DNA of 30,852 nucleotides from the IMG/VR virus record IMGVR_UViG_3300049009_000679, positions 1 to 30,852 of that record; one strand, given 5' to 3'. The position numbers and the translations under genes are program-made. The notes beneath the pieces are model-generated. The model made no database searches. It had not been told where the DNA came from and saw nothing but the letters and a program-made list of their open reading frames with translations. Numbering within the stretch: position 1 is the stretch's first letter; the number at the start of each line of letters is the position of its first letter. This DNA comes from a virus. Its lineage: Duplodnaviria; Caudoviricetes. This document shows positions 4,791 through 24,744 of the stretch, piece after piece.

Positions 4791-7700
4791 TCAGTCGCGC
4801 GGCGGGGGGCCAAAGAGGATGGCCGTGGCCGGTGCGTCGCCCTCGCTCCAGGCCTTCCAGCCCTTGTAGCTGCGGGTGGCCTGGATGGTCGGTATGCCAA
4901 AGGCAGTGCCCAGCAGGTTGATCGTGGCCAGCACGGCCGGCTCATCGATCTCGCCCTGGCCCGCCTGCGAGACCGCCTTCTTGCCGTCGCCCACGATCTT
5001 GCCCGCCGGCGGCCCGGCATAGTCGAACGGGGACCACAGCGTGGGCAGCTCGCGCAGGCCGACGAACATGCCGAACAGGTAGCCGGCCTGCCACTCGAGC
5101 ACGCGCTTGGCCCACTTCTCGGCATCGTCGTCCTCGCCCCCGCCCTTGAGCAGGAAGGTCAGCAGCGCCGGCAGGATGGCCGGGATCACCGTCAGCAGCG
5201 CCATGTCGGCCATCCAGCCGGCAACTGCCTTGGGGTCCTTGAACTCGGTGGTCGCGGTCTTCTCCGCCACCAGGTTCAGCGTGGTGTTGAAGTAGCTGTA
5301 GAACTGGGTCAGGAAGGGCATGTTGCGCTGGACCGCGGACAGGTCCTTGGTCGTGCCGCCGCCCTGGCTGCCCAGCACCGCCTCGTCGGCCAGGCTCACC
5401 GCGGCGCTCTCGTCCACGCCGCCGGCCAGGGCCTTCTCGTAGGCGCCCACCCAGGTCGGGACGTCGGCCACCAGCTGCAGCTTCTGCATCAGCATGAAGA
5501 GGCTGGTGTCGTAGACCTGGGCGATCTTCGACTTGCCCTGCACGCGCTGGCTGATCTCGCGCAGCTCGCGGTTGAAGGTCTTTGAGCGCAGCCGCATGAA
5601 CTCCGACTTCTCGTTGATCCAACCGACCGTCGACTCCATGCGCACAGAGTCGCCGGCCCAGCGCGCGGCGCCCTTCAACACCGGTACGACGCCGACCCGG
5701 GCCATCGACTGGGTCAGGCCGAAGGGCTGCATCAGCGCGGTGGTCAGGCTGGCGCCCATGATCGAGCGGCTCACGTTGGAGCGCATAAGCAGCAGCAGGC
5801 GGTCGATCTGGCCCTGGTGCACGGCGTCACCCACGGCGATCGCGTCGGCGGTCTCCTTGAGCGTGCGCGCGGTCTCGTTGTCGTGGTACTCGCGGATGGC
5901 CACGGCAATGCGCGGGTCGTTCAAGATGCGGTTGGCGTCGATGAACCACTCGTGCCAGGCCAGGTCGTGCACCACCTGGTTGACGTGCTGGGTGATGACC
6001 GACAGATCCTTGCGCACCGGCCGGCCCTTCACCTCCTCGACCCGGGCCTTGGTGTGGCCGCGCCGGGTGGTGGGCCTGGCAACCATGCCCTGCATGATCT
6101 GCTTGGCGGTCTCCAGCGCTTCCTGCTTCTCGGCCTTGATCGAGCGCTCGGTGTCGTACTTGATGGGATAGTAGCCCCCGCGCATCTGCACGCCGTTCAG
6201 CTCGAACGGGACCGCCTCGACCTTGTCCTCGGCCACGCCGGTGACGCGCTCCTGCTTGGCCTTGATGTCGGCCCAGTAGGTGTCGATGTGGGCCCAGACG
6301 TCGTTGACGAACTTGAGCTCGACCGGCGACAGCGTGGCCAGGATGGCGTTCACCTGGGCCTCGGTCCAGCCGTCGCCGTCCATCACGCGCTGGCGGTTCT
6401 GCGGGTTGCCCCAGTTCAGCGCGATCGACAGTCGGCCGGCGCGCGACAGGCTGTTGCGGATCTCGGGGATGAAGACCTTGGCCCCGGAGAACCCGCCGGC
6501 CAGCTTCTCGATCGGGGCGTAGATCTTGGCCAGGGCTTCGGTGGCCTGCTCAAGGCGCGTGGCCTCGGAGGCGCCGGCATCGTTCATCGAGCGGACCAGG
6601 ATGCGGTACATCGGCCCGTTGTCCAGGCCCCCGTCCATCTGCCTGATCAGGCTGTTGAACTTGCGGTGGTCGGCCCAGGCGCCCTTGAAGAACTTCTTGA
6701 TGCGGCCGTCGGGCTCGAGCTGCACCGGGCGCGGCTTGCCGCCGTGCTCGCGGATCGAGTCGACCGCCTCGGCCACGATGGCGTCGAACTCGCGCTTGTC
6801 CTTGGCGGCCAGCAGCTTGCTCTTCAGCCTGGCCAGGTGCTCGACCGACTTCACGCCATCGACCAGGCCGCGGAACTCCTCGACCGTCATCTCCTTGTAG
6901 GAGGTCAGCCTGGCGTTGTCCAGCAGATCCTGGGGCACCACCGGGTCCAGGCCCATCTCCTGCTGCTTGGCCACCCACGACGCCAGGCTGGCACGCCGGT
7001 CGATCTCGCGCGCCGTGGTGCTGGTGCGCAGATCGAAGCGCTCCAGCATCTGGTCGATCTGGTCGAGGTAGTCGGCCGGCAGCTTCTCGCGCACGCTGGC
7101 CTTGTCGAACTTCTTGAGGTAGTCGATCGAGCGCTTCACCTCGGCCGCGGCCTGGGCGGTGTAGCGCGCGGTGTACTCGCTCAGGAGCTGATCGCGCTTG
7201 GCCGCGATGGCGTCGGCAGTCTTGCCTTCGGCCTGCAGCTTCAGCGCCTTGGCAGCGGCGCGCGTGGCCGCCGCGGCGTGCTGCGCCGGCTTCAGGTCGA
7301 GGATCTTGCGACGGTTCACCACGGTCTCGGCAAAGCTCTTGGCCGCCTGCACGATCACGTTGACCGACAGCGGGCGGCCCTTTGCCGTGGTCTTGCCGGT
7401 GGGCGCAGTGGCCGACATGGCGCGCTGCATGGCGGCCAGCTCGGTGGCCACGAACCGGCGCCGGGCCTCGTTGTGCACCGCCTCGTTGGCGGCCCGGGCC
7501 ATGCCGTCGGCAGTGACCACCTCGCCGTAGGTCTCCAGCAGGCGCTGCTCGGTCAGCGCGTCGATGAACTGCGCAGCCGGCGGCTGCTCGACCAAGGCCT
7601 TGGCCAGCTCATCCCCGGAGGTGAAGCCGAACTGCTCGGCGATGGCGTCCATCTGCGGCTCGGGCAGGACCGGTGTCGGGCGTGGGTTCTGCTGCTCCCA

Positions 7701-10700
7701 GGCGATGACCTTGGCCTCGGCCTGGTTCTCCAGGGCCTTCTTGTTCTTGGCCAGCAGCTGGCCCTTCTTGATGCCCTTGACGGCCTGGGCTTCGGGCGTG
7801 GCCATGAAGGCCGCCTTGACCTCCTCGCGCGCACGCCCCAGCGCCGCCTCGCGCCGGTCGCCCCAGTCCTTCAGGGCATCCCGCTGCTCGGGCGTGCTGG
7901 TGCGCAGGCCCTTGATGTAGGCCCGGGCCTGCTCCACCGGCAGGGCCTCGACCTCCGCCTTCACCTCGGCCCGCATCGCGTCGCGCTTTTCCTTGACGTC
8001 GGCCTGGGCTGCGCGCAGGGCCTTGCCCCGTGCGGCCGCGGCCCACTTCATGTCGGCCAGCGACTTCTTCTGCAGGTCCTCGGTGGCGTCGGTGGTGGCG
8101 GCCGCGTTCTGCTCCTGGTAGGCGGCCCACTCCTCGGGCGTCATGCCGGCTTCCTTCGCCGACTTGAACACCGCCTCGAAGTTCGCCAGGCTCTGCGCCT
8201 CGGCGATCTGCTCGTCGGTGGCGATCAGGCGATCGAACACGCCACGCACCTCATCGGAGAGGCGCAGGTTGCGGCCCTGCATGAAGGCCTTCAGCGACTT
8301 GTAGGCCGACAGCATGAACTGCCGGAAGCGCTGGAACACACCGCGCATCTCGACGCTCGGCGCCTTGCCCTCGAACAGGTACTGCTCGAACGACTCGGCC
8401 CAGCGCTCGTGGTAGGCACGCTTGCCTTCCAGGTCCAGGCCGGCCCACACCTGCTCCGGCGTCTGGCCGGTCTTCTTGTCGGCCTTCACACCGAACCATT
8501 TCAGCGTGGCGGCCAGGTCGTCCTTGATCTGCTGCGGCGCGTCGGGCTGGGTGGCCAGGTCGGCCTGCACCTCGAGGAAGAAGTGGCCCATCTCGTGCAG
8601 GAACGAGGACAGGTCGGCGTTCTCCAGCAGCGTGATCTCCAGCTGGCTGGGGCTGAACGTGGCGCGGGGGGCCTGTTCGCCTTGCGCCAGGTCAGCAGCC
8701 GGTGCGCCCTCGTCAGGCACCACGCCCTCGGTCCAGGTCCACGACGGCATCAGCCCGGTCTTCTGCTCGGCGAAGACCGTGTCCTCGACCTTGGCGTTCT
8801 GGTTGGTTTCGCCGTGCGGCCCGTAGTTCAGCCACGAGTTCTGACCGCGGGTCTCGGTTGTGATCGCGCCCAGCGCGCTGCCGGTGAACAGCCGTCTGTG
8901 GGCCTGCCAGGCGTTCTCCTCGCCCTGCGCGCGAAAGCCTGCGCCCTCCAGGCCGTGGCCAAAGGCGTCGTGCACCGCACGGAACAGGTCGTTGGCCAGC
9001 ACGGGGCGCTGCTCACCGTCGGGCGAGCCGTAGGCCCAGGTGATGCCGGTGTCGGCCAGCAGCGGGTTTGCCACCTCGTCGCCTCGCGCACCGGTCGGGG
9101 TCACGAAGTAGGTCGGGTTGAAGGGCCCCCACTGCTCGGCCTTCGGCCCGAACAGCGCGCCCTTCTCATCGCCCGTGCGCTGGGCGATCGCCTCCTGGTC
9201 GGCCAGGCCGCTCAGGAAGTCGCCCTGCCGCTTGGTCAGTGCCCGCTTGACCTTGACCACCAGCGTCGGCTCGGTGTCGGACGAGAAAACGGCGGAGGCC
9301 TCGACCTCGGCACCGACCACGCGCAGCGCCTCGAGCACCACCGCGGGGTCGAGGTTGGGGCCGCCGTTCGGGTCGGCCAAGCCGATGTTGACCTGGCCGC
9401 CGGTGCCGAAGCCGGCCTCGGTCGGGAACACCGCCATCGACTGGTTTGCGCGGAGGTCGCGCATCGCGTTCCAGGGGTTGCCCTGGTACGGGTCGCTGGC
9501 CGGGTCCATGAACCAGAACTTGTAGCCGGCAGCCTGCAGCGCCTGGTACTGCTCGGTGGTCTGCCGCAGCAGGTCGGCGTAGGCCTCCTTGACCGCAGGG
9601 TCCCGCGGCGCGTGCGGCATCGCCTCGTAGGCTGCCGCGATGCGCGCGGCCCGCTCAGGGTCTACTTGGGCGTAGGCGGCCTGGCGTCGGAGGTTGACGC
9701 CGTTGTCTCGGGCGTACTGCTCGGCGACGGCGACGAGGCGGGGGTCTGGCCCGGCCGCACCAGCGACTGCAGGAGCACCTTCGAGCGGCGCAAGGCTTCC
9801 GCTTGAATACCGTCCTGCTCCGTTTCCGGTTCCGGTTTGTTCGGGTCGTCCATCGGTCAGGCCTCCAGCTTGCTGTTCCAGAAGGCCAGCGCCTCCTCGA
9901 ACTCCGTCTGGCTGTCGAACTCCTCCCGCTGGGGCTTGGCCAGTGGGACCCTCTCCGAGACCCGTTCGTCCTGTTCCTGCTGCGCTGTCTGCGGCTCGAA
10001 TTTCATCATCTACCTCCTGGAGGGTTCGGGCGATGTCGGCATCCGACACGCCCTTCTCGCGGGCCAGCTTGGCGGCCGCATTTGCGTAGTCGGGGGCGGC
10101 GTCATCTTCGTAGCCGGTGTCGCCCTCGCCGGCCTCTTTGGCGGCGTCGTAGAGCCGCTTCTCAGGATACCAAAGCAGGGCCTGCAAGTCGCTCATGGTG
10201 AGCGCCGGGTACTTCTGCTGCAACTGCTCGAGCACCTGGCCAAACACCTTGCGGATTCGGTTGCGCTCAGGCGGCCCGCTTGGGGCTTCCTTCTGCCCGT
10301 CGTTGTAGTTGGTCAGCGCGTTGCCGACTTTGCGCAGCTCGTCCCCGAAGGAGACCCGCCTCTGCCCCTTCTTGAGCGGGCCCATGATCGATGCCAGGCG
10401 GGCCTGGCCGGCTTGGTCGGTAGCGTCAGCCACCTCGGCCATGCGCGCACGGTTGATGGGCTTCTGGCTGGACTTCCAGATGGCCAGCGCCACGGCATCA
10501 GCGTCGCCCACCGTCAGCTTGCGCTTGATGATGGCCTCGAAGGCCTTCTTCTGGTCTTTGTCCAGGCCCTGGATCAGTGCGCGCAGTTGCACACGCTTCG
10601 CCCGCACCTGCTCCGGGTTGGTCTCGACCAGAGTGCCGGTCCACCGGCCCCAGGTCCGCATCAGCCAGCGGTCCATTGTCAGCTGCTCGAAGCGGCCATA

Positions 10701-13700
10701 AAGGTTCGAGAAGAACCCGTTGCCGATCTTCGGGCCCAGGATGGCGCTGCCGTAGACCTCGGTGGTCAGATTCTCGCCACCAACCTCCAGGTCGCTGAAG
10801 GCCTCGATCTCCTTGACCGTGGCCTTGGTCGTCATGAACGACTGCAGCTGCTCGAATCCGTGCTTGGCCAGCATCTCGTTGAAGAGCGCCAGCCCGTTGT
10901 TGATGGCCGCCTGCGCCTTGCCGGCCTGGACATCCGTCGGCATTTTGCCGGTGGTCTTGAAAGTGGCGTAGGCCTGCTCGGCCAGCTCGAAGTTCTTATC
11001 GACTTTGAGCCCGTTGCTGGTCACCGCCATCGCCCACACGAAGGCGAACTTGGCCTGCGGGTCGGTCTGGATCTCCGGGTGCACCAGCGCCACCACGCGG
11101 AGGGCCTTGGTGACCTTCTCGTTGTACCAGCCCACAGCGTTGGGGTTGGTGCGCAGCGCGATCTCGGCGTCCATCGTGGCGACACGCACCAGGTACTGCT
11201 CGGCGCCGCCGTTGAAGTCCTCGAGGTTGACCTTGGCTGCCTTGAGCGCCTCGAGCACGCGCTCCTGCAGCGCGAGCTTCAGATCCCGGTTGGTCTTGAA
11301 TTGCTGCCCGTTGGCCAGTTCGAACGCCGACTCCACATTGGCAACAGCGTCGACCGTGACCGGCACCGGCTTGCCGGGCTTCTGCACGCCACGCTGCTCG
11401 AGCACGTCGCTCTTCTTGCGCACCTGCAGCTCGCCGCCCACCACCTGCATGTCGTAGCTCGACCAAGAGGCGTTGCCCTGGCGGCGCTCCAGCAGGGCCT
11501 GCATCGCCTCGGGCGTGCCGCTGGCGCTGGTCTGCCATTGCGGCGCCTGCTGCGGCAGCGGTTCGACCCGCTTGCCGTTCTCGATGCGCGACTGCGCGCC
11601 AAGCAGCTCGGGCTGGAAGGTCTGGGGCCCGAGCATGATGACCTGGCCGGGCTGGCTGCCGTCCATGCGCGTGGCGTAGCCGCGGAAGCCTGCGTCCAGC
11701 AGGCGGGACTCGAAGGCCCGGGCGTCGCCGCCCTTGAGCTTCAGCGGGTCCGCGTCGGAGTCGTAGACGCCGGTGAGCTGCACGCGGTGCGCGCGGCCGC
11801 CCACGCCCGACTCGGGCCTGATGCCGGTGCCCTTGTCGAAGTAGAACGACAGGCGCTGCTTGATGCGCGGGTCGGTCGCGTTCTGGATGTCCTCGCGCGC
11901 ACTGCCCTTGAGCCCGGTGCCGAAGTAGCCGGTCGACAGCGTCGGCCGGTCGGCCATGCTGAAGTGGTAGCCCTCGACATTCATCTCGCCCGGGCGCAGG
12001 CCGCTGTCGTTCAGGACCCCGCCGCCCGGCTGCTCTGCCGTGATGCGCAGCGGGTACTTGGCGAACATCTCCTCGGGCGTGATGCCCAGGCGGCCAGCCA
12101 TCGTGGTGTAGAAGGCGCCGGCCAGGCTGGCGTAGCTCTCGTTGACCTCTGGCCGGAACCGCATCGTCTTGTTGAGCTGGCCCAGCACGTTGGCCTTGAC
12201 GACCTCGGAGCTGGTGCGCATCGCGTCGGCGTTGGTCGCCTCCTCGATCACGCGCGTGGCCTCGGCCTGGAGGTAGCTCTCGGCCTGGCCAGCAGCCTCT
12301 TGGGCTTCCAGCTGCGACAGCGAATCCGGCGCCGTGCGCAGGTTCTGCAGCAGCACCTTCTCCAGGGGCGTGCCGCTGGCGTGCGCCACCAGATCGCCGA
12401 TGGGCAGCTCGACCGTGCCGCCGCTGGCCAGGGCCTCGGGCAGTTGGTCCTGCACCGACTGCGGCATCTGATTGAAGACCTCGGCCGCCTCGGGCGACTT
12501 CAGCGCCTCGGCCAGGGTGGCGGCGTCGATGAACACCGACTTCGGCGCGCCGTCGGTCTGGTCGGCCACGCCCTGCACCAGCTCGGCGAAGGTCGACGGG
12601 TCGCGCTCGCGCAGCTTCGACTCGCCGGCTTTGGCGAAGAGCTCGGTCAGCCGTTGGGCGTCGCCCTCGGCGTCGTTCACCCGGCTGGTGTCGCGCATCG
12701 CACGGCGCGCCGCGGCGCCGGCCCCAGCCATGACAGCCGACTGCGTGATGGTGGCCACCAAGGTCTGGTAGGCCGCCTCGGGGCGCTCGTTCAGGTACTG
12801 CTGCCAGGTCTTGTCGGGGTTGGCGATCGCCGTGTCGATGGCATCCTGCAACAGCGTGGCCACCTGCTCGGTGGGCAGCTCGCGCGCCAGCATGCCGGTG
12901 AAGAACTCGGTCATCCCGGTCTTGCCCAGCTTGTTGACGAGGAAGCCCATCGGCAGCAGCTCGGTGCCCACCTCGACGGCGCCCTCGGCCAGGCCACCCA
13001 CCGCGGCCATGCCTGGTGTGGCGCCGCGTGCCCGGTACTTGCCGTAGGCCTCGGCCTGGGTCTGCACGCCGATGCTGGCCAGAGCCGGCACGGGGTTGCC
13101 GGTGGCCACAGACAGGGCGATGCCGGGCGCCTGGCGCAGCACGCTGGTCAGGCCGCCGTAGACGGCGCCGGCGGTGCTGCTCTCGAACTCGGGCGTGGTG
13201 TAGGCGCTGGCGCCCTGGGCCTGGGCGGTGCGCCGCAGCTGTTCGGCCTTCTCCTGCTCGGTGCGGGGCAGGATGCCCAGCGTGTCGAACAGGTCGCCCA
13301 TCTGCTGGCGCAGGCCCTCGCGCATCGCGCGCAGGCCCTGGGGCAGAGACTGGGCCAGGCCGGTGAGCACCGAGCCGGTGGTGGGCTCTGGGCCCTTCCA
13401 GGCCTTCAGCTCGCCGTACTGACGCACGGCCTGCTCGATCTCGGTGAGCTTCGGCGCGTCGTCATGCGCCAGGCGCGCGAAGTCGGGCTCGAGGTATTTG
13501 TTCTGCAACGCCGGGCTGTTGGCCGTGGCGTCGGTCACCTGCTTCACCGCGGCCTGGGTCTTGGTCTCCTTGGGCAGCGCCTCGACGGCGGCCGTCGGGT
13601 AGCCCAGGTACTTGGCCACGCGGCGCTGCGCGCTGAACGCGTCCGGGTTGATGTCGACCGCAGTCGAAAGCGACCCCGCCAGCATCGCGCGCTGGCGCTG

Positions 13701-13745
13701 CTGTTCACCATCGAGCAGGAGGTCGTAGGGGTTATCGTTTGGCAT
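4791..13745 (-). CDS. Giant internal virion/ejection protein (2984 aa), polyvalent multi-domain
   Basis: Position after the internal virion genes and before the tail fibre; helical Ala-rich termini; embedded motifs GYHFS...FY...E, GPKIG.FF.N...TMDRW...QALLW, AVHDAFGH...EE, FLHEMGH...E. Confidence 0.9.
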   Translation of the reverse strand: MPNDNPYDLLLDGEQQRQRAMLAGSLSTAVDINPDAFSAQRRVAKYLGYPTAAVEALPKETKTQAAVKQVTDATANSPALQNKYLEPDFARLAHDDAPKLTEIEQAVRQYGELKAWKGPEPTTGSVLTGLAQSLPQGLRAMREGLRQQMGDLFDTLGILPRTEQEKAEQLRRTAQAQGASAYTTPEFESSTAGAVYGGLTSVLRQAPGIALSVATGNPVPALASIGVQTQAEAYGKYRARGATPGMAAVGGLAEGAVEVGTELLPMGFLVNKLGKTGMTEFFTGMLARELPTEQVATLLQDAIDTAIANPDKTWQQYLNERPEAAYQTLVATITQSAVMAGAGAAARRAMRDTSRVNDAEGDAQRLTELFAKAGESKLRERDPSTFAELVQGVADQTDGAPKSVFIDAATLAEALKSPEAAEVFNQMPQSVQDQLPEALASGGTVELPIGDLVAHASGTPLEKVLLQNLRTAPDSLSQLEAQEAAGQAESYLQAEATRVIEEATNADAMRTSSEVVKANVLGQLNKTMRFRPEVNESYASLAGAFYTTMAGRLGITPEEMFAKYPLRITAEQPGGGVLNDSGLRPGEMNVEGYHFSMADRPTLSTGYFGTGLKGSAREDIQNATDPRIKQRLSFYFDKGTGIRPESGVGGRAHRVQLTGVYDSDADPLKLKGGDARAFESRLLDAGFRGYATRMDGSQPGQVIMLGPQTFQPELLGAQSRIENGKRVEPLPQQAPQWQTSASGTPEAMQALLERRQGNASWSSYDMQVVGGELQVRKKSDVLEQRGVQKPGKPVPVTVDAVANVESAFELANGQQFKTNRDLKLALQERVLEALKAAKVNLEDFNGGAEQYLVRVATMDAEIALRTNPNAVGWYNEKVTKALRVVALVHPEIQTDPQAKFAFVWAMAVTSNGLKVDKNFELAEQAYATFKTTGKMPTDVQAGKAQAAINNGLALFNEMLAKHGFEQLQSFMTTKATVKEIEAFSDLEVGGENLTTEVYGSAILGPKIGNGFFSNLYGRFEQLTMDRWLMRTWGRWTGTLVETNPEQVRAKRVQLRALIQGLDKDQKKAFEAIIKRKLTVGDADAVALAIWKSSQKPINRARMAEVADATDQAGQARLASIMGPLKKGQRRVSFGDELRKVGNALTNYNDGQKEAPSGPPERNRIRKVFGQVLEQLQQKYPALTMSDLQALLWYPEKRLYDAAKEAGEGDTGYEDDAAPDYANAAAKLAREKGVSDADIARTLQEVDDEIRAADSAAGTGRTGLGEGPTGQAPAGGVRQPDGVRGGAGLLEQQAGGLTDGRPEQTGTGNGAGRYSSGSLAPLEGAPAVAGAAGPDPRLVAVAEQYARDNGVNLRRQAAYAQVDPERAARIAAAYEAMPHAPRDPAVKEAYADLLRQTTEQYQALQAAGYKFWFMDPASDPYQGNPWNAMRDLRANQSMAVFPTEAGFGTGGQVNIGLADPNGGPNLDPAVVLEALRVVGAEVEASAVFSSDTEPTLVVKVKRALTKRQGDFLSGLADQEAIAQRTGDEKGALFGPKAEQWGPFNPTYFVTPTGARGDEVANPLLADTGITWAYGSPDGEQRPVLANDLFRAVHDAFGHGLEGAGFRAQGEENAWQAHRRLFTGSALGAITTETRGQNSWLNYGPHGETNQNAKVEDTVFAEQKTGLMPSWTWTEGVVPDEGAPAADLAQGEQAPRATFSPSQLEITLLENADLSSFLHEMGHFFLEVQADLATQPDAPQQIKDDLAATLKWFGVKADKKTGQTPEQVWAGLDLEGKRAYHERWAESFEQYLFEGKAPSVEMRGVFQRFRQFMLSAYKSLKAFMQGRNLRLSDEVRGVFDRLIATDEQIAEAQSLANFEAVFKSAKEAGMTPEEWAAYQEQNAAATTDATEDLQKKSLADMKWAAAARGKALRAAQADVKEKRDAMRAEVKAEVEALPVEQARAYIKGLRTSTPEQRDALKDWGDRREAALGRAREEVKAAFMATPEAQAVKGIKKGQLLAKNKKALENQAEAKVIAWEQQNPRPTPVLPEPQMDAIAEQFGFTSGDELAKALVEQPPAAQFIDALTEQRLLETYGEVVTADGMARAANEAVHNEARRRFVATELAAMQRAMSATAPTGKTTAKGRPLSVNVIVQAAKSFAETVVNRRKILDLKPAQHAAAATRAAAKALKLQAEGKTADAIAAKRDQLLSEYTARYTAQAAAEVKRSIDYLKKFDKASVREKLPADYLDQIDQMLERFDLRTSTTAREIDRRASLASWVAKQQEMGLDPVVPQDLLDNARLTSYKEMTVEEFRGLVDGVKSVEHLARLKSKLLAAKDKREFDAIVAEAVDSIREHGGKPRPVQLEPDGRIKKFFKGAWADHRKFNSLIRQMDGGLDNGPMYRILVRSMNDAGASEATRLEQATEALAKIYAPIEKLAGGFSGAKVFIPEIRNSLSRAGRLSIALNWGNPQNRQRVMDGDGWTEAQVNAILATLSPVELKFVNDVWAHIDTYWADIKAKQERVTGVAEDKVEAVPFELNGVQMRGGYYPIKYDTERSIKAEKQEALETAKQIMQGMVARPTTRRGHTKARVEEVKGRPVRKDLSVITQHVNQVVHDLAWHEWFIDANRILNDPRIAVAIREYHDNETARTLKETADAIAVGDAVHQGQIDRLLLLMRSNVSRSIMGASLTTALMQPFGLTQSMARVGVVPVLKGAARWAGDSVRMESTVGWINEKSEFMRLRSKTFNRELREISQRVQGKSKIAQVYDTSLFMLMQKLQLVADVPTWVGAYEKALAGGVDESAAVSLADEAVLGSQGGGTTKDLSAVQRNMPFLTQFYSYFNTTLNLVAEKTATTEFKDPKAVAGWMADMALLTVIPAILPALLTFLLKGGGEDDDAEKWAKRVLEWQAGYLFGMFVGLRELPTLWSPFDYAGPPAGKIVGDGKKAVSQAGQGEIDEPAVLATINLLGTAFGIPTIQATRSYKGWKAWSEGDAPATAILFGPPPRD
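9662..9853 (-). CDS. Nested +1-frame ORF 2 inside the giant protein (63 aa, MDDPNKPEPETEQDGIQAEALRRSKVLLQSLV...)
   Basis: GGAGG 8 nt before ATG 9853; starts 3 nt after the stop of nested ORF 1; the main frame uses atypical GGA/CGA/CAA/GTA codons here. Confidence 0.55.
   Translation of the reverse strand: MDDPNKPEPETEQDGIQAEALRRSKVLLQSLVRPGQTPASSPSPSSTPETTASTSDARPPTPK
9857..10009 (-). CDS. Nested +1-frame ORF 1 inside the giant protein (49-50 aa, MMKFEPQTAQQEQDERVSERVPLAKPQREEFDSQTEFEEALAFWNSKLEA)
   Basis: Not in the supplied ORF track (<60 aa). AGGAGGT SD before ATG ATG (10009/10006); codons are almost all G/C-ending, while the main frame over the same bases is A/T-ending and low-complexity. 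Confidence 0.7.
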   Translation of the reverse strand: MMKFEPQTAQQEQDERVSERVPLAKPQREEFDSQTEFEEALAFWNSKLEA

Positions 13746-22589: not shown

Positions 22590-24193
22590 CAGAACCCCAT
22601 CACTTCCGCGCTTGGCGTGGAGCTGTGCGTGATGACGACAGACCGTCCGTGAGGCACTGTGACTGCCGTATTTGTTGCCGTCGCAACCGTTCGCCCGTTG
22701 AGCGTCACGCTTGACACCGTGCCGCCGTAGATCGCCAAGACCGCGGTATCGCCCGTGGTGTTGGTGTAGGTGTACGGGGATGCTCCGACCGACACGGCAG
22801 CGGGAGCAATCGGGTTGTAACCAAGGTTATGGCGGACAATTTTGGTTGTGCCGGTGCCTTGATCCAGCATCGCGCCCACGGTGTTCCCAAGCAGGAAATT
22901 GCCCGTGATCGAGTAGTTGTCGTGGTTCGTGCCGAACACGATGATTCCGCGCTGGCTGTTGCCAGTCAGCCCATCTGCCGCACCGCAGCGAGCGCCCATG
23001 ATTGAGAAGCCGCAGACGTTGTTCCCGATGGCAATGCCGTAGCTCGTGTTTTGTGCAAAGGCCCCGCCGAGAACATTGAAATCAGCCAGCAGCGTTGTGC
23101 TTGCTGCGCTCACATCCACACCGCTCCCGGCGTTCAAATGCCCTTGGTGGTTTACCAACCGAACACCTGTAACGGAAGCCGTGCCCGCCTGGATGATCTG
23201 GAACCCTGATCCCGTCATGCTGCAGGTCCAGCAGTCCACAAAGTCAACCCGCTGCACCGAACCGCCACCGGCCGCAGGTTGGATCAGGACGCCAGTGCCT
23301 GCCGTGTCAAAGAAGCAGTCATGGACCTTGAGTGAGTAGACGGTTTGACCGGCCCCAGGGTCGATCAGCAGGTCAACACCTTGAGCGATCACCGATGTAT
23401 CGGAGATGGTTAGCGCGGAACTGTCTTGAACCCGAATGCCGCACAGCGGGTAAGGTGCAGACTGCGCGCCGATCAAGCAGCCGTGAATCAGTTGGGTGGT
23501 ATCTCCACCACCGGCCACGATCCGCGAGCCCCCAGATGCGCCCGTTCGGAAGATGCAATGCAGCACCTTCGCATTGACCCCGACCATGTAAACGCCAGTG
23601 AAGTCGTTGTTGAACTGGCAGTTGTCGGCCTTGGTGTAGGCCCCGGTCAGGGTGACGTAGTTGCCAGCCGTGCGGGTGACGGTCGAATCGAACCCCACAT
23701 GCTCGATTGAACTGTTCCAAGCGATCAGGTCTAGCACCGAAGCGGTTGCGCTGTTCGTCCAGATAGTGGTGTTCTGGTTTCCGCTGCCGATGATTCGATA
23801 GCTTTGACCGTCCGCCGTGCTGATCGTCGGGGCCAGATAGCCACCCGGAGGCATCCACACAGCCCCACCGCCTGCAGCCTGCACAGCAGTGAGGCACGCC
23901 GCCATTGCAGTGGCAACGCTGATTGACTTGGTTTTGGCACTCACATCAGCGCGCTGTGCGTCGGTGAAGTAGTCAAACATCGACACGATGTCCAGCGCTT
24001 TGCTCTGCAGCGTCCGGGCCACCGCACCTGTACCTGATGCAATGTGCCCAACAAGGGCTGATCCGGTAGAGGCGGCAAGGTCTTGCGCGTCGACGATCAG
24101 TTGGTCCTCATCCGCTGGCGTGCGAAAGCCCCGGATCTTGCCGGTGGCTTGGTCAATCAGTGCGCGAACGTAGTCGCCGACTCGGTGGCTCAT
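22589..24193 (-). CDS. Second tailspike-like beta-helix protein (534 aa)
   Basis: Neck motif DLAASTGSALVG...GTGAVARTLQSK..DIVS..DY, then GGGAVWMPPGGY (pectate_lyase_3-like start) and beta-helix repeats. Confidence 0.8.
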   Translation of the reverse strand: MSHRVGDYVRALIDQATGKIRGFRTPADEDQLIVDAQDLAASTGSALVGHIASGTGAVARTLQSKALDIVSMFDYFTDAQRADVSAKTKSISVATAMAACLTAVQAAGGGAVWMPPGGYLAPTISTADGQSYRIIGSGNQNTTIWTNSATASVLDLIAWNSSIEHVGFDSTVTRTAGNYVTLTGAYTKADNCQFNNDFTGVYMVGVNAKVLHCIFRTGASGGSRIVAGGGDTTQLIHGCLIGAQSAPYPLCGIRVQDSSALTISDTSVIAQGVDLLIDPGAGQTVYSLKVHDCFFDTAGTGVLIQPAAGGGSVQRVDFVDCWTCSMTGSGFQIIQAGTASVTGVRLVNHQGHLNAGSGVDVSAASTTLLADFNVLGGAFAQNTSYGIAIGNNVCGFSIMGARCGAADGLTGNSQRGIIVFGTNHDNYSITGNFLLGNTVGAMLDQGTGTTKIVRHNLGYNPIAPAAVSVGASPYTYTNTTGDTAVLAIYGGTVSSVTLNGRTVATATNTAVTVPHGRSVVITHSSTPSAEVMGF

Positions 24194-24744
24194 AGTGCTG
24201 CCTCGTTCGTGGTGCTGGCCTGGTCGGGCCAGATCCTGTTGCTCTTCGCCTGGTTGTCGGGGGTTGCCATGACAGCCAGGTTGTGATGGGTGTGCAAGCC
24301 GCAGACGAGCGGGCTTTGCAAAGGCACAAGGTGATCGACTTGACAGTCAATACCCGCGCGGCGGCACGCGTCAGCAAAGCGGTAGACCGCCGCTATCCGC
24401 GCGGGGTCAGCCCATGCCGGCGTGGCGTTCTTTTTTGACGCTCGGCGCCGTGCGGTCAGCGGGGCAACCTTATGCCTGTTGATGCGGCGCCATTCAGCGA
24501 TCCGTTCTGCGACAGCGGGGCTCTCGGCGAACTTGCTGCGCGCACGGGAGTTCGTCTGTTCCCGGTTCTGTGCGGCCCAGGCGCGTTTGTGCTCATCAGC
24601 TGCGGCCTTGTTCTTGCCCGCCCACGCACGGGACTGAGCGCTTCCGCAGGCCTTGCAGTACGAGCGCAACCGGGTTGGCCCGCGAGGCATCGGGTTGAAC
24701 AGCGACTCGTCCTTGGCCGCGTGGCATTTGCTACAGGTCTTCAC
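24190..24744 (-). CDS. Free-standing HNH homing endonuclease with N-terminal Cys4 Zn finger
   Basis: KTCSKC...YCKAC; ATPAWAD; VDHLVPL...VCGLH..HNL......N..KSN. Confidence 0.9.
   Translation of the reverse strand: MKTCSKCHAAKDESLFNPMPRGPTRLRSYCKACGSAQSRAWAGKNKAAADEHKRAWAAQNREQTNSRARSKFAESPAVAERIAEWRRINRHKVAPLTARRRASKKNATPAWADPARIAAVYRFADACRRAGIDCQVDHLVPLQSPLVCGLHTHHNLAVMATPDNQAKSNRIWPDQASTTNEAAL

Follow-up and report, generated by a model that had tools for sequence, protein, structure and literature searches.

Out-of-frame genes nested between domains of a giant phage virion protein as candidate domain-specific inhibitors

Why should the linker between two enzyme-like domains of a giant phage protein depart so sharply from the codon usage of its own gene? 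The question is raised by the virus record IMGVR_UViG_3300049009_000679 (Duplodnaviria; Caudoviricetes), the 30,852 nucleotides (nt) of which are the whole stretch analysed here (the window). Its minus strand carries a gene for a multidomain virion protein of 2984 amino acids (aa) at positions 4791..13745. Between domains A and B of this protein two small open reading frames (ORFs) are nested in the +1 frame: ORF1 (9857..10009, minus strand; 50 aa, or 49 aa from the ATG at 10006; isoelectric point 4.4) and ORF2 (9662..9853, minus strand; 63 aa). Both are present where an earlier reading of the sequence (the original prediction) had placed them, on the minus strand, which that prediction omitted. 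From comparisons among relatives and from structure modelling we propose, with a probability of roughly 60%, that the nested peptides are cognate, domain-specific inhibitors, encoded out of frame, which would silence the enzyme domains in the cell that builds the virions.

ORF1 is a fusion of two peptide modules, PepA and PepC. The PepA core (9947..10000, minus) reads P-x-S/T-A-Q-x-E-x-N/D-E with an invariant Gln10; the PepC module (9860..9937, minus) reads P-x-R-x-x-F-x-S-x-x-E-F-E-E-A-x-x-x-W and is shortened. ORF2 begins with the PepB core (about the first 33 codons, P-E-T-E-x-D-G-x-x-A-E-A-L-R-R), and its tail is unconserved. The ribosome-binding site of ORF1 (AGGAGGT, 10012..10018, minus) is located within the last helix of domain A, where the main frame reads Q-E-V, and that of ORF2 (GGAGG, 9862..9866, minus) inside the end of ORF1. 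The order AGGAGGT-AG-ATG-ATG, the 3-nt gap between the ORFs, the GGAGG-N8-ATG and the stop of ORF2 formed by the main-frame codons CAA-GTA were all found as originally described. A strong duplex with the anti-Shine-Dalgarno (anti-SD) sequence (-9 kcal/mol or lower) occurs at only 2 of the 25 out-of-frame ATGs of the giant gene, those at 10006 (-11.6) and 9853 (-9.3); the second ATG of ORF1 (10006) is a better start than the first. Neither peptide matched a Pfam or PHROGs family.

Over ORF1, 33 of 52 main-frame codons end in A or T, as do 22 of 36 over codons 1–35 of ORF2. Such codons make up 6.2% of the rest of the giant gene, with at most nine in any other 52-codon window. The codon adaptation index (CAI) of the main and +1 frames is 0.12 and 0.62 over ORF1, where the +1 frame has the codon use normal for the giant gene, and 0.11 and 0.45 over codons 1–35 of ORF2. 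Over codons 36–63 of ORF2 the bias is back in the main frame (CAI 0.53 vs 0.44; 4 of 28 codons A/T-ending), and domain B proper starts at about codon 36. The shift of codon bias into the +1 frame, as claimed originally, holds for ORF1 and the first 35 codons of ORF2 and fails for the remainder. The CAA-GTA stop had also been offered as a sign of selection; we dropped it as evidence for a nested gene because the stop position of ORF2 varies among relatives. An assembly frameshift as the cause of the pattern was rejected, since the main frame is open in relatives. Both frames and both starts are kept in a related strain (contigs of runs X2-X4, one study, depth below 5), where a deletion of 6 nt disrupts neither frame.

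Loci with the flanking domains were gathered from three collections, taking at most the best 80 from each of 209, 472, 20 and 91 confirmed stretches. Downstream of domain A the +1 frame keeps P-x-S-A-Q-x-E-x-N/D-E (PepA) while the main frame drifts; upstream of domain B the +1 frame keeps P-E-T-E-x-D-G-x-R-A-E-A-L-R-R (PepB). Among 67 isolated substitutions in the PepA core (39 nearest pairs), 36 were nonsynonymous in the main frame and synonymous in the +1 frame, against 9 of the opposite class. Within domain A, the same 39 pairs gave 15 against 221 of 260. For the PepB core (42 nearest pairs) the counts were 80 against 41 of 159, compared with 3 against 239 of 273 in the control; over its final third, both frames of the PepB core are under constraint. 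By these comparisons of the two frames, of the kind proposed originally, we regard it as confirmed that coding selection has moved to the +1 frame in the linker and that the nested ORFs are real genes.

The start sites are conserved as well, and the predicted tie between flanking domain, SD sequence, start and open +1 frame was borne out. Of 58 distinct domain-A loci, 51 have a start with an SD duplex of -5 or stronger at the usual site; of 61 domain-B loci, 50 have one upstream, within the same +1 ORF. An open +1 frame that is merely an untranslated by-product of main-frame constraint or linker composition is scarcely credible. The main frame conserves P-L-x-G-A-P where domain B starts, and this motif does shape part of PepB; against this stand the substitution classes and column entropies, which favour the +1 frame, the conserved SD and start, and the docking of the peptide on the catalytic site in the model described below. 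In addition, 253 independent gene-call clusters (50% identity) among 1.84 billion representatives match the PepB profile, and the 150 among the matches listed are all short proteins of 39–225 aa. A direct search of IMG/VR with ORF1 gave only one weak locus among 36 candidates.

The remaining 7 of the 58 domain-A loci keep PepA without an SD start at the usual site (L006, L007, L008, L011, L020, L031 and L042). Some of them have ACG in place of ATG, and in all seven the +1 frame is open for 61–101 codons upstream, with weak G-A-G-G starts; this would fit either start migration or another entry route. These loci favour a reading in which the +1 peptide is no separate gene and forms, by ribosomal frameshifting, an alternative C-terminus of a shortened giant protein. 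We consider this very improbable, given the SD starts of the other 51 loci, a +1 stop directly before the ATG in the window and in many relatives, the lack of a visible shared slippery sequence, and the position of PepB, which precedes its domain rather than following it.

If the nested ORFs are genes, to what do they belong? The PepA profile matches 100 of 107 domain-A loci and the PepB profile 58 of 61 domain-B loci, with 0 of 107 and 0 of 61 matches in control segments; the profiles were built from the same loci, so that these counts are partly circular, and the 107 include near-duplicates. Left out of the profile counts were L138 and L159 (wrong end anchor), L109 (frameshifted), L200 (no visible PepA) and matches short of the domain end. 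In scans of IMG/VR DNA with the peptide patterns only, a matching main-frame domain was present at 38 of 38 PepB and 11 of 12 PepA matches, many of them on contigs already in the earlier locus sets, and the main ORF stays open in the same 38 of 38 and 11 of 12. PepA follows domain A regardless of the downstream domain, and PepB precedes domain B regardless of the upstream domain. Where A and B are adjacent, the two nested ORFs are often fused (L001, L038, L098).

The 61 domain-B loci were also clustered by their upstream domain. Domain A or a relative lies upstream in 13 loci, of which nine have PepA by pattern, two more by eye and two in diverged form. Five other clusters (6, 6, 4, 4 and 3 loci) each have their own peptide type as judged by eye; patterns tagged 1, 4, 3, 3 and 3 of their loci, and a four-locus cluster includes one divergent member. 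By motif, two of the five upstream domains look like further HhH-type (helix-hairpin-helix) domains. The remaining 25 loci form small clusters with no clear pattern or are unclustered. An upstream domain that we take to be like an ADP-ribosyltransferase (ART) by motif has no peptide in 3 of 3 loci. The same domain of the window gene (about aa 590–730) has none either: at about 11540-12000 (minus) it shows Y-H-F-S ... R-L-S-F-Y ... E-S-G-V-G, no Pfam match and no nested partner. The peptides thus travel with a specific domain, as the original prediction had it, and its wider claim that each enzymatic module has such a partner does not extend to the ART-like domain or to two domain-A loci (L168, L200).

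Other +1 modules accompany these cassettes in relatives. In L049-L080 (marine, AT-rich) a +1 ORF of 125–136 codons after domain A fuses PepA to a further conserved helical module, which overlaps an entire small main-frame domain. In L036, L037 and L039, PepA is followed by another nested ORF (62 aa, own start), which overlaps the beginning of the next main-frame domain. A short recurring +1 module, L-x-N-L-P-F-D-P-A, stands before PepB in L255 (before domain B), L245 and L250, and in the proteins P0002, P0020 and P0026.

What do the domains do? Domain A (aa 848–1245; 10011..11204, minus) has an invariant G-P-K (Lys1006) and Asp1025, 19 residues apart; in domain numbering G157, K159 and D178 are invariant in 53 of 53 rows. 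Its model has a predicted local distance difference test (pLDDT) score of 91; a single-sequence model (pLDDT 45) was set aside. In a structural search the top 23 of 48,161 chains all had the HhH-GPD fold, and the next unrelated row had a Z-score of 5.4. The HhH-GPD superfamily of DNA glycosylases includes OGG, Nth, MutY and AlkA. The best match was a Thermotoga 8-oxoguanine glycosylase (Z = 11.2, where the tool advises caution for helical proteins below about 13; root-mean-square deviation 4.5; 199 aligned residues). Compared with solved HhH-GPD members, domain A has the same fold and Lys/Asp spacing at 10–13% identity, together with a large helical insertion. The catalytic pair K249/D268 of hOGG1, as given in part of PMC4207560, has equal spacing, a match made by spacing without residue-level superposition.

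Foldseek against the PDB gave nothing at E <= 0.001 for domain A, PDB sequence searches gave nothing meaningful for domains A and B, and Pfam reported for domain-A members only a weak DUF7178 in 11 of 53 rows (best E 3e-4). ESM Atlas placed both domains in unnamed viral clusters, with DUF7178 on 20% of one domain-A cluster. The modelling bears out the glycosylase-like domain of the original prediction as an HhH-GPD fold with a putative catalytic Lys/Asp. The fold matches also include a base transferase (8z2m, base-modifying) and queuine-salvage enzymes; with such matches and this Z-score, base excision is only one candidate activity of domain A.

Co-folding of domain A with ORF1, as suggested originally, predicted a complex with a score of 0.81 (runs 0.81, 0.80 and 0.83), while the best of three controls reached 0.00. 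Among solved complexes 116 of 157 reach the co-folding mark, as do 2 of 215 mismatched pairs; for runs with own alignments, such as these, the counts are approximate. The runs agree in at least 95% of contacts, and the pLDDT of the partner is at least 82. The closest predicted contacts connect peptide residues 9–21 (PepA) to domain A residues 100–107 and 154–160. The invariant Gln10 is placed beside Gly157-Pro158-Lys159, and residues 177–179 of domain A are part of the predicted interface. Sequence searches gave no solved relative, which makes it unlikely that the model reproduced a structure seen in training. The model supports binding of ORF1 to domain A across the HhH motif and the putative catalytic Lys/Asp, which PepA is predicted to cover.

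Cassette co-travel and a confident complex would suit any cognate partner, including folding chaperones or structural subunits that stabilise the domain, keep it ejection-competent or complete it, and are perhaps packaged with it. Out-of-frame products that bind the product of the host gene, with no known inhibition, are described in parts of the reports on GndA (10.64898/2026.10.22.760973) and Slr0489L/S (10.64898/2025.12.20.695498). We nevertheless hold this role to be unlikely, as the predicted interface lies over the HhH motif and the invariant Lys/Asp, domain A alone is modelled at a pLDDT of 91, and some loci have no peptide.

Besides the Z-score and the mixed fold matches of domain A, several observations weigh against inhibition by the nested peptides. 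The complex score expresses the confidence of the model and does not distinguish inhibitors from subunits or chaperones. The SD strength of the nested starts, -11.6 and -9.3 compared with 0.2 at the first ATG of the giant gene, is a weakened comparison because the true start of the giant gene may differ from that ATG. The seven domain-A loci lacking an SD start at the usual site belong here, too. L168 and L200 have an intact G-P-K and Asp in domain A and no visible PepA, and in Octadecabacter virus 1 no peptide precedes domain B; a partner is therefore not always needed. A link between loss of the peptide and loss of catalytic residues was considered and failed, as L168 and L200 keep theirs. 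Finally, no fold or family was named for domain B by Pfam, PDB sequence or ESM Atlas searches.

Domain B of the window (aa 1318–1674; 8724..9794, minus) belongs to clade B1 and has an invariant H-D-x-x-G-H (aa 1592) and G-E-E-N-A. These motifs suggest a metal-dependent hydrolase. A small domain (phrog_11722, aa 1452–1551; 9093-9392, minus) is inserted into domain B, and no nested peptide comes with the insert. The enlarged length is shared by L002 and L003 and absent from most relatives. The Q-E-A-I-A motif of the insert is reminiscent of S-adenosylmethionine (SAM)-lyase-like proteins; Pfam gave no match.

PepC, the C-terminal half of ORF1, has a different history. The original prediction had proposed its motif as one that might go with a flanking domain, and it turned out to mark the other clade of domain B. 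Among the first 259 loci there was only one other occurrence (L164, a Polynucleobacter contig). A pattern scan gave 57 matches, of which 12 are nested (10 distinct), and nine of the ten distinct ones stand directly before a related HDxxGH domain. In a tree of 70 domain-B fragments, based on 112 columns only, the rows with PepB (60) and those with PepC (10) split at a single branch with a support of 100/99; PepC thus elsewhere precedes clade B2. The domain B of the window is of clade B1 with its own PepB, and PepC is therefore an orphan here. It lacks the C-terminal R-x-G-R of its relatives and is probably a relic. The simplest history would be an A-PepA-PepC-B2 arrangement as in L164, in which B2 may have been replaced by a PepB-B1 cassette. 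The other 45 of the 57 matches are not nested, and many are in-frame parts of unrelated acidic proteins, so that the motif alone is not diagnostic. In L268, L273, L274, L278-L280, L294 and others the motif is in frame in acidic phage proteins of 300–350 aa, scaffolding-like by reading; these are a possible origin of PepC, or else a case of convergence with it.

Orphan modules bear on a further role, in which the peptides act outward and confer superinfection immunity against the same domains of competing phages more than against the protein of their own phage. The retention of PepC in the window with no B2, the fused-module trains that are common among PepB proteins and one relative within a 1.18-Mb Polynucleobacter contig would all suit it, and arrays of orphan immunity genes are a known likeness. 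The genes lie, however, inside a late virion gene, and no sigma-70-like promoter was found in 9500-10700, where none is expected by chance either. PepC is shortened here and has two amino-acid changes in the related strain (S33N, L48P), which fits decay. Outward immunity as the main function is accordingly quite unlikely in our view.

For the nested peptides as inhibitors we propose the following mechanism. An enzyme domain inside a polyprotein can have no separate adjoining immunity gene, and the +1 frame of the linker beside it would therefore encode the partner, preceded by a strong ribosome-binding site of its own. Domain and partner would be exchanged together, as a cassette, among giant virion genes. 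In the producing cell, translation of the late mRNA would yield the giant protein and an excess of peptide. PepA would sit on the HhH-GPD domain across its DNA-binding motif and the catalytic Lys/Asp and keep a DNA-base enzyme off phage and host DNA; PepB would bind the HDxxGH domain in the same role. The peptide would have to be released at packaging or ejection, and after ejection into the next host the domains could act with no fresh peptide being made. We give even odds to a broader picture of a hidden modular code, in which each dangerous domain is shuffled as a unit with its own out-of-frame inhibitor, orphans linger, the peptides flag toxic effectors and PepA is an active-site inhibitor of an HhH-GPD domain.

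The window is a minus-strand head-tail operon with terminase, head-tail adaptor, major head protein, tail tube proteins, two internal virion proteins and tail fibres. The giant protein (phrog_9880) carries LPD22 at its N-terminus (E 9.1e-16; 58.3 bits, Pfam cut-off 28.6). The position of its gene suggests the large ejection protein of a short-tailed (podophage-like) phage, packaging and delivery being indicated by the location beside internal virion protein and tail genes only. Matches to Bbp16/Bbp19 in the window point to what we take to be a BPP-1-like phage. The DNA data set that best contains the sequence is a freshwater metagenome, from which the window may stem; no RNA data set was listed as containing it. 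Near aa 1737 the giant protein has F-L-H-E-M-G-H (HExxH, a zincin-like metallopeptidase motif), a region for which Pfam gave no match. An endonuclease VII / HNH-like gene is located at 24190-24744 (minus), between the head-tail adaptor and a tail-fibre-like gene.

Related cassettes seem to occur in cultured phages. In three of these only the giant coding sequence is annotated. By eye, domain A of Limnohabitans phage DC33 is followed by an SD, an ATG and a PepA-like start, and in Pag-Yong1 a PepC-like stretch precedes domain B; the PepA and PepB profiles gave no match at E < 0.01 on the three phages. As far as sequence can tell, annotation misses the nested ORFs, and the cultured phages carry related unannotated cassettes, which makes the idea testable. 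Phage DC33 (L368, PQ492659.1) is filed under Inoviridae despite a 39-kb genome and a giant virion gene.

If the proposal is true, it would explain how virion polyproteins with DNA- or protein-attacking domains are made without self-harm, and 'low-complexity linkers' of giant proteins would be coding in a second frame. Many unannotated peptide families would be added (PepB alone has 253 clusters). The pairing of peptide and domain could flag active effector domains, and the peptides could serve as reagents for their cloning and study. Research on DNA repair could also draw on a short peptide that blocks the active site of an HhH-GPD domain.

How does the arrangement compare with known systems? 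Ugi is a phage DNA-mimic inhibitor of a glycosylase, directed at a host enzyme of another fold. PepA is likewise acidic and predicted to dock at the HhH motif, yet it would target a domain of the phage itself. The lambda genes Rz/Rz1 form an embedded spanin pair. With embedded spanins, Slr0489L/S of Synechocystis and Gnd/GndA of E. coli, insofar as the parts of the sources consulted describe them, the nested ORFs share a same-strand, out-of-frame gene wholly inside another and products that interact, here by prediction. Those are fixed pairs of membrane or lysis function, whereas here many peptide families are matched to swappable domains. Embedded spanins combine a lipoprotein gene with a membrane-protein host gene, and both peptides are free of cysteines and hydrophobic signals.

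Polyvalent proteins, as described in passages of Iyer et al. 2017 (PMC5512222), are giant multidomain conflict proteins with LPD22 and shuffled enzyme domains, proposed to be delivered to the next host. The giant protein resembles them in its 2984 aa, its LPD22, the HhH-GPD fold of domain A and the shuffling of domains among relatives. The searched passages of the main text of PMC5512222 contain no nested partner genes; 'overlap', 'linker' and 'glycosylase' do not occur in that text, 'immunity' concerns other matters, and the supplements may name domains A and B. In MuF polymorphic toxins, according to parts of PMC5576092, a phage head-module protein carries variable enzyme domains, and a small putative immunity gene lies beside each toxin domain. 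Here, too, a cognate small gene travels with its enzyme domain. The toxin domains of MuF proteins are terminal, however, and the small ORF follows the gene, whereas the present domains are internal and the linker holds the nested partner, which follows its domain in the case of PepA and precedes it in the case of PepB and PepC.

In Rpn, as far as the consulted part of Zhong et al. (10.1101/2023.05.02.539157) goes, an enzyme gene contains an internal start, equipped with a separate ribosome-binding site, and the small protein translated from it binds and blocks the long product. The internal start with its own ribosome-binding site is shared by 51 of 58 domain-A and 50 of 61 domain-B loci, as judged from sequence and conservation, and binding to the long product is a model-only result for ORF1 and domain A (0.81 vs 0.00). 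RpnS, however, is the same-frame C-terminal tail of RpnL, one per gene, in a bacterial defence system. The peptides here are in the +1 frame, unrelated to the host protein and several per gene, each is paired with a single domain within a phage virion polyprotein, and inhibition is proposed only. Topic searches of the open-licence PMC and bioRxiv literature listed no account of partner genes nested in the genes of virion polyproteins. The arrangement would work like an effector-immunity cassette and like Rpn, yet belongs to neither, being out of frame, unrelated to the host protein and attached to an internal domain; what would be new here is the domain-specific pairing in both directions together with the predicted complex at the active site.

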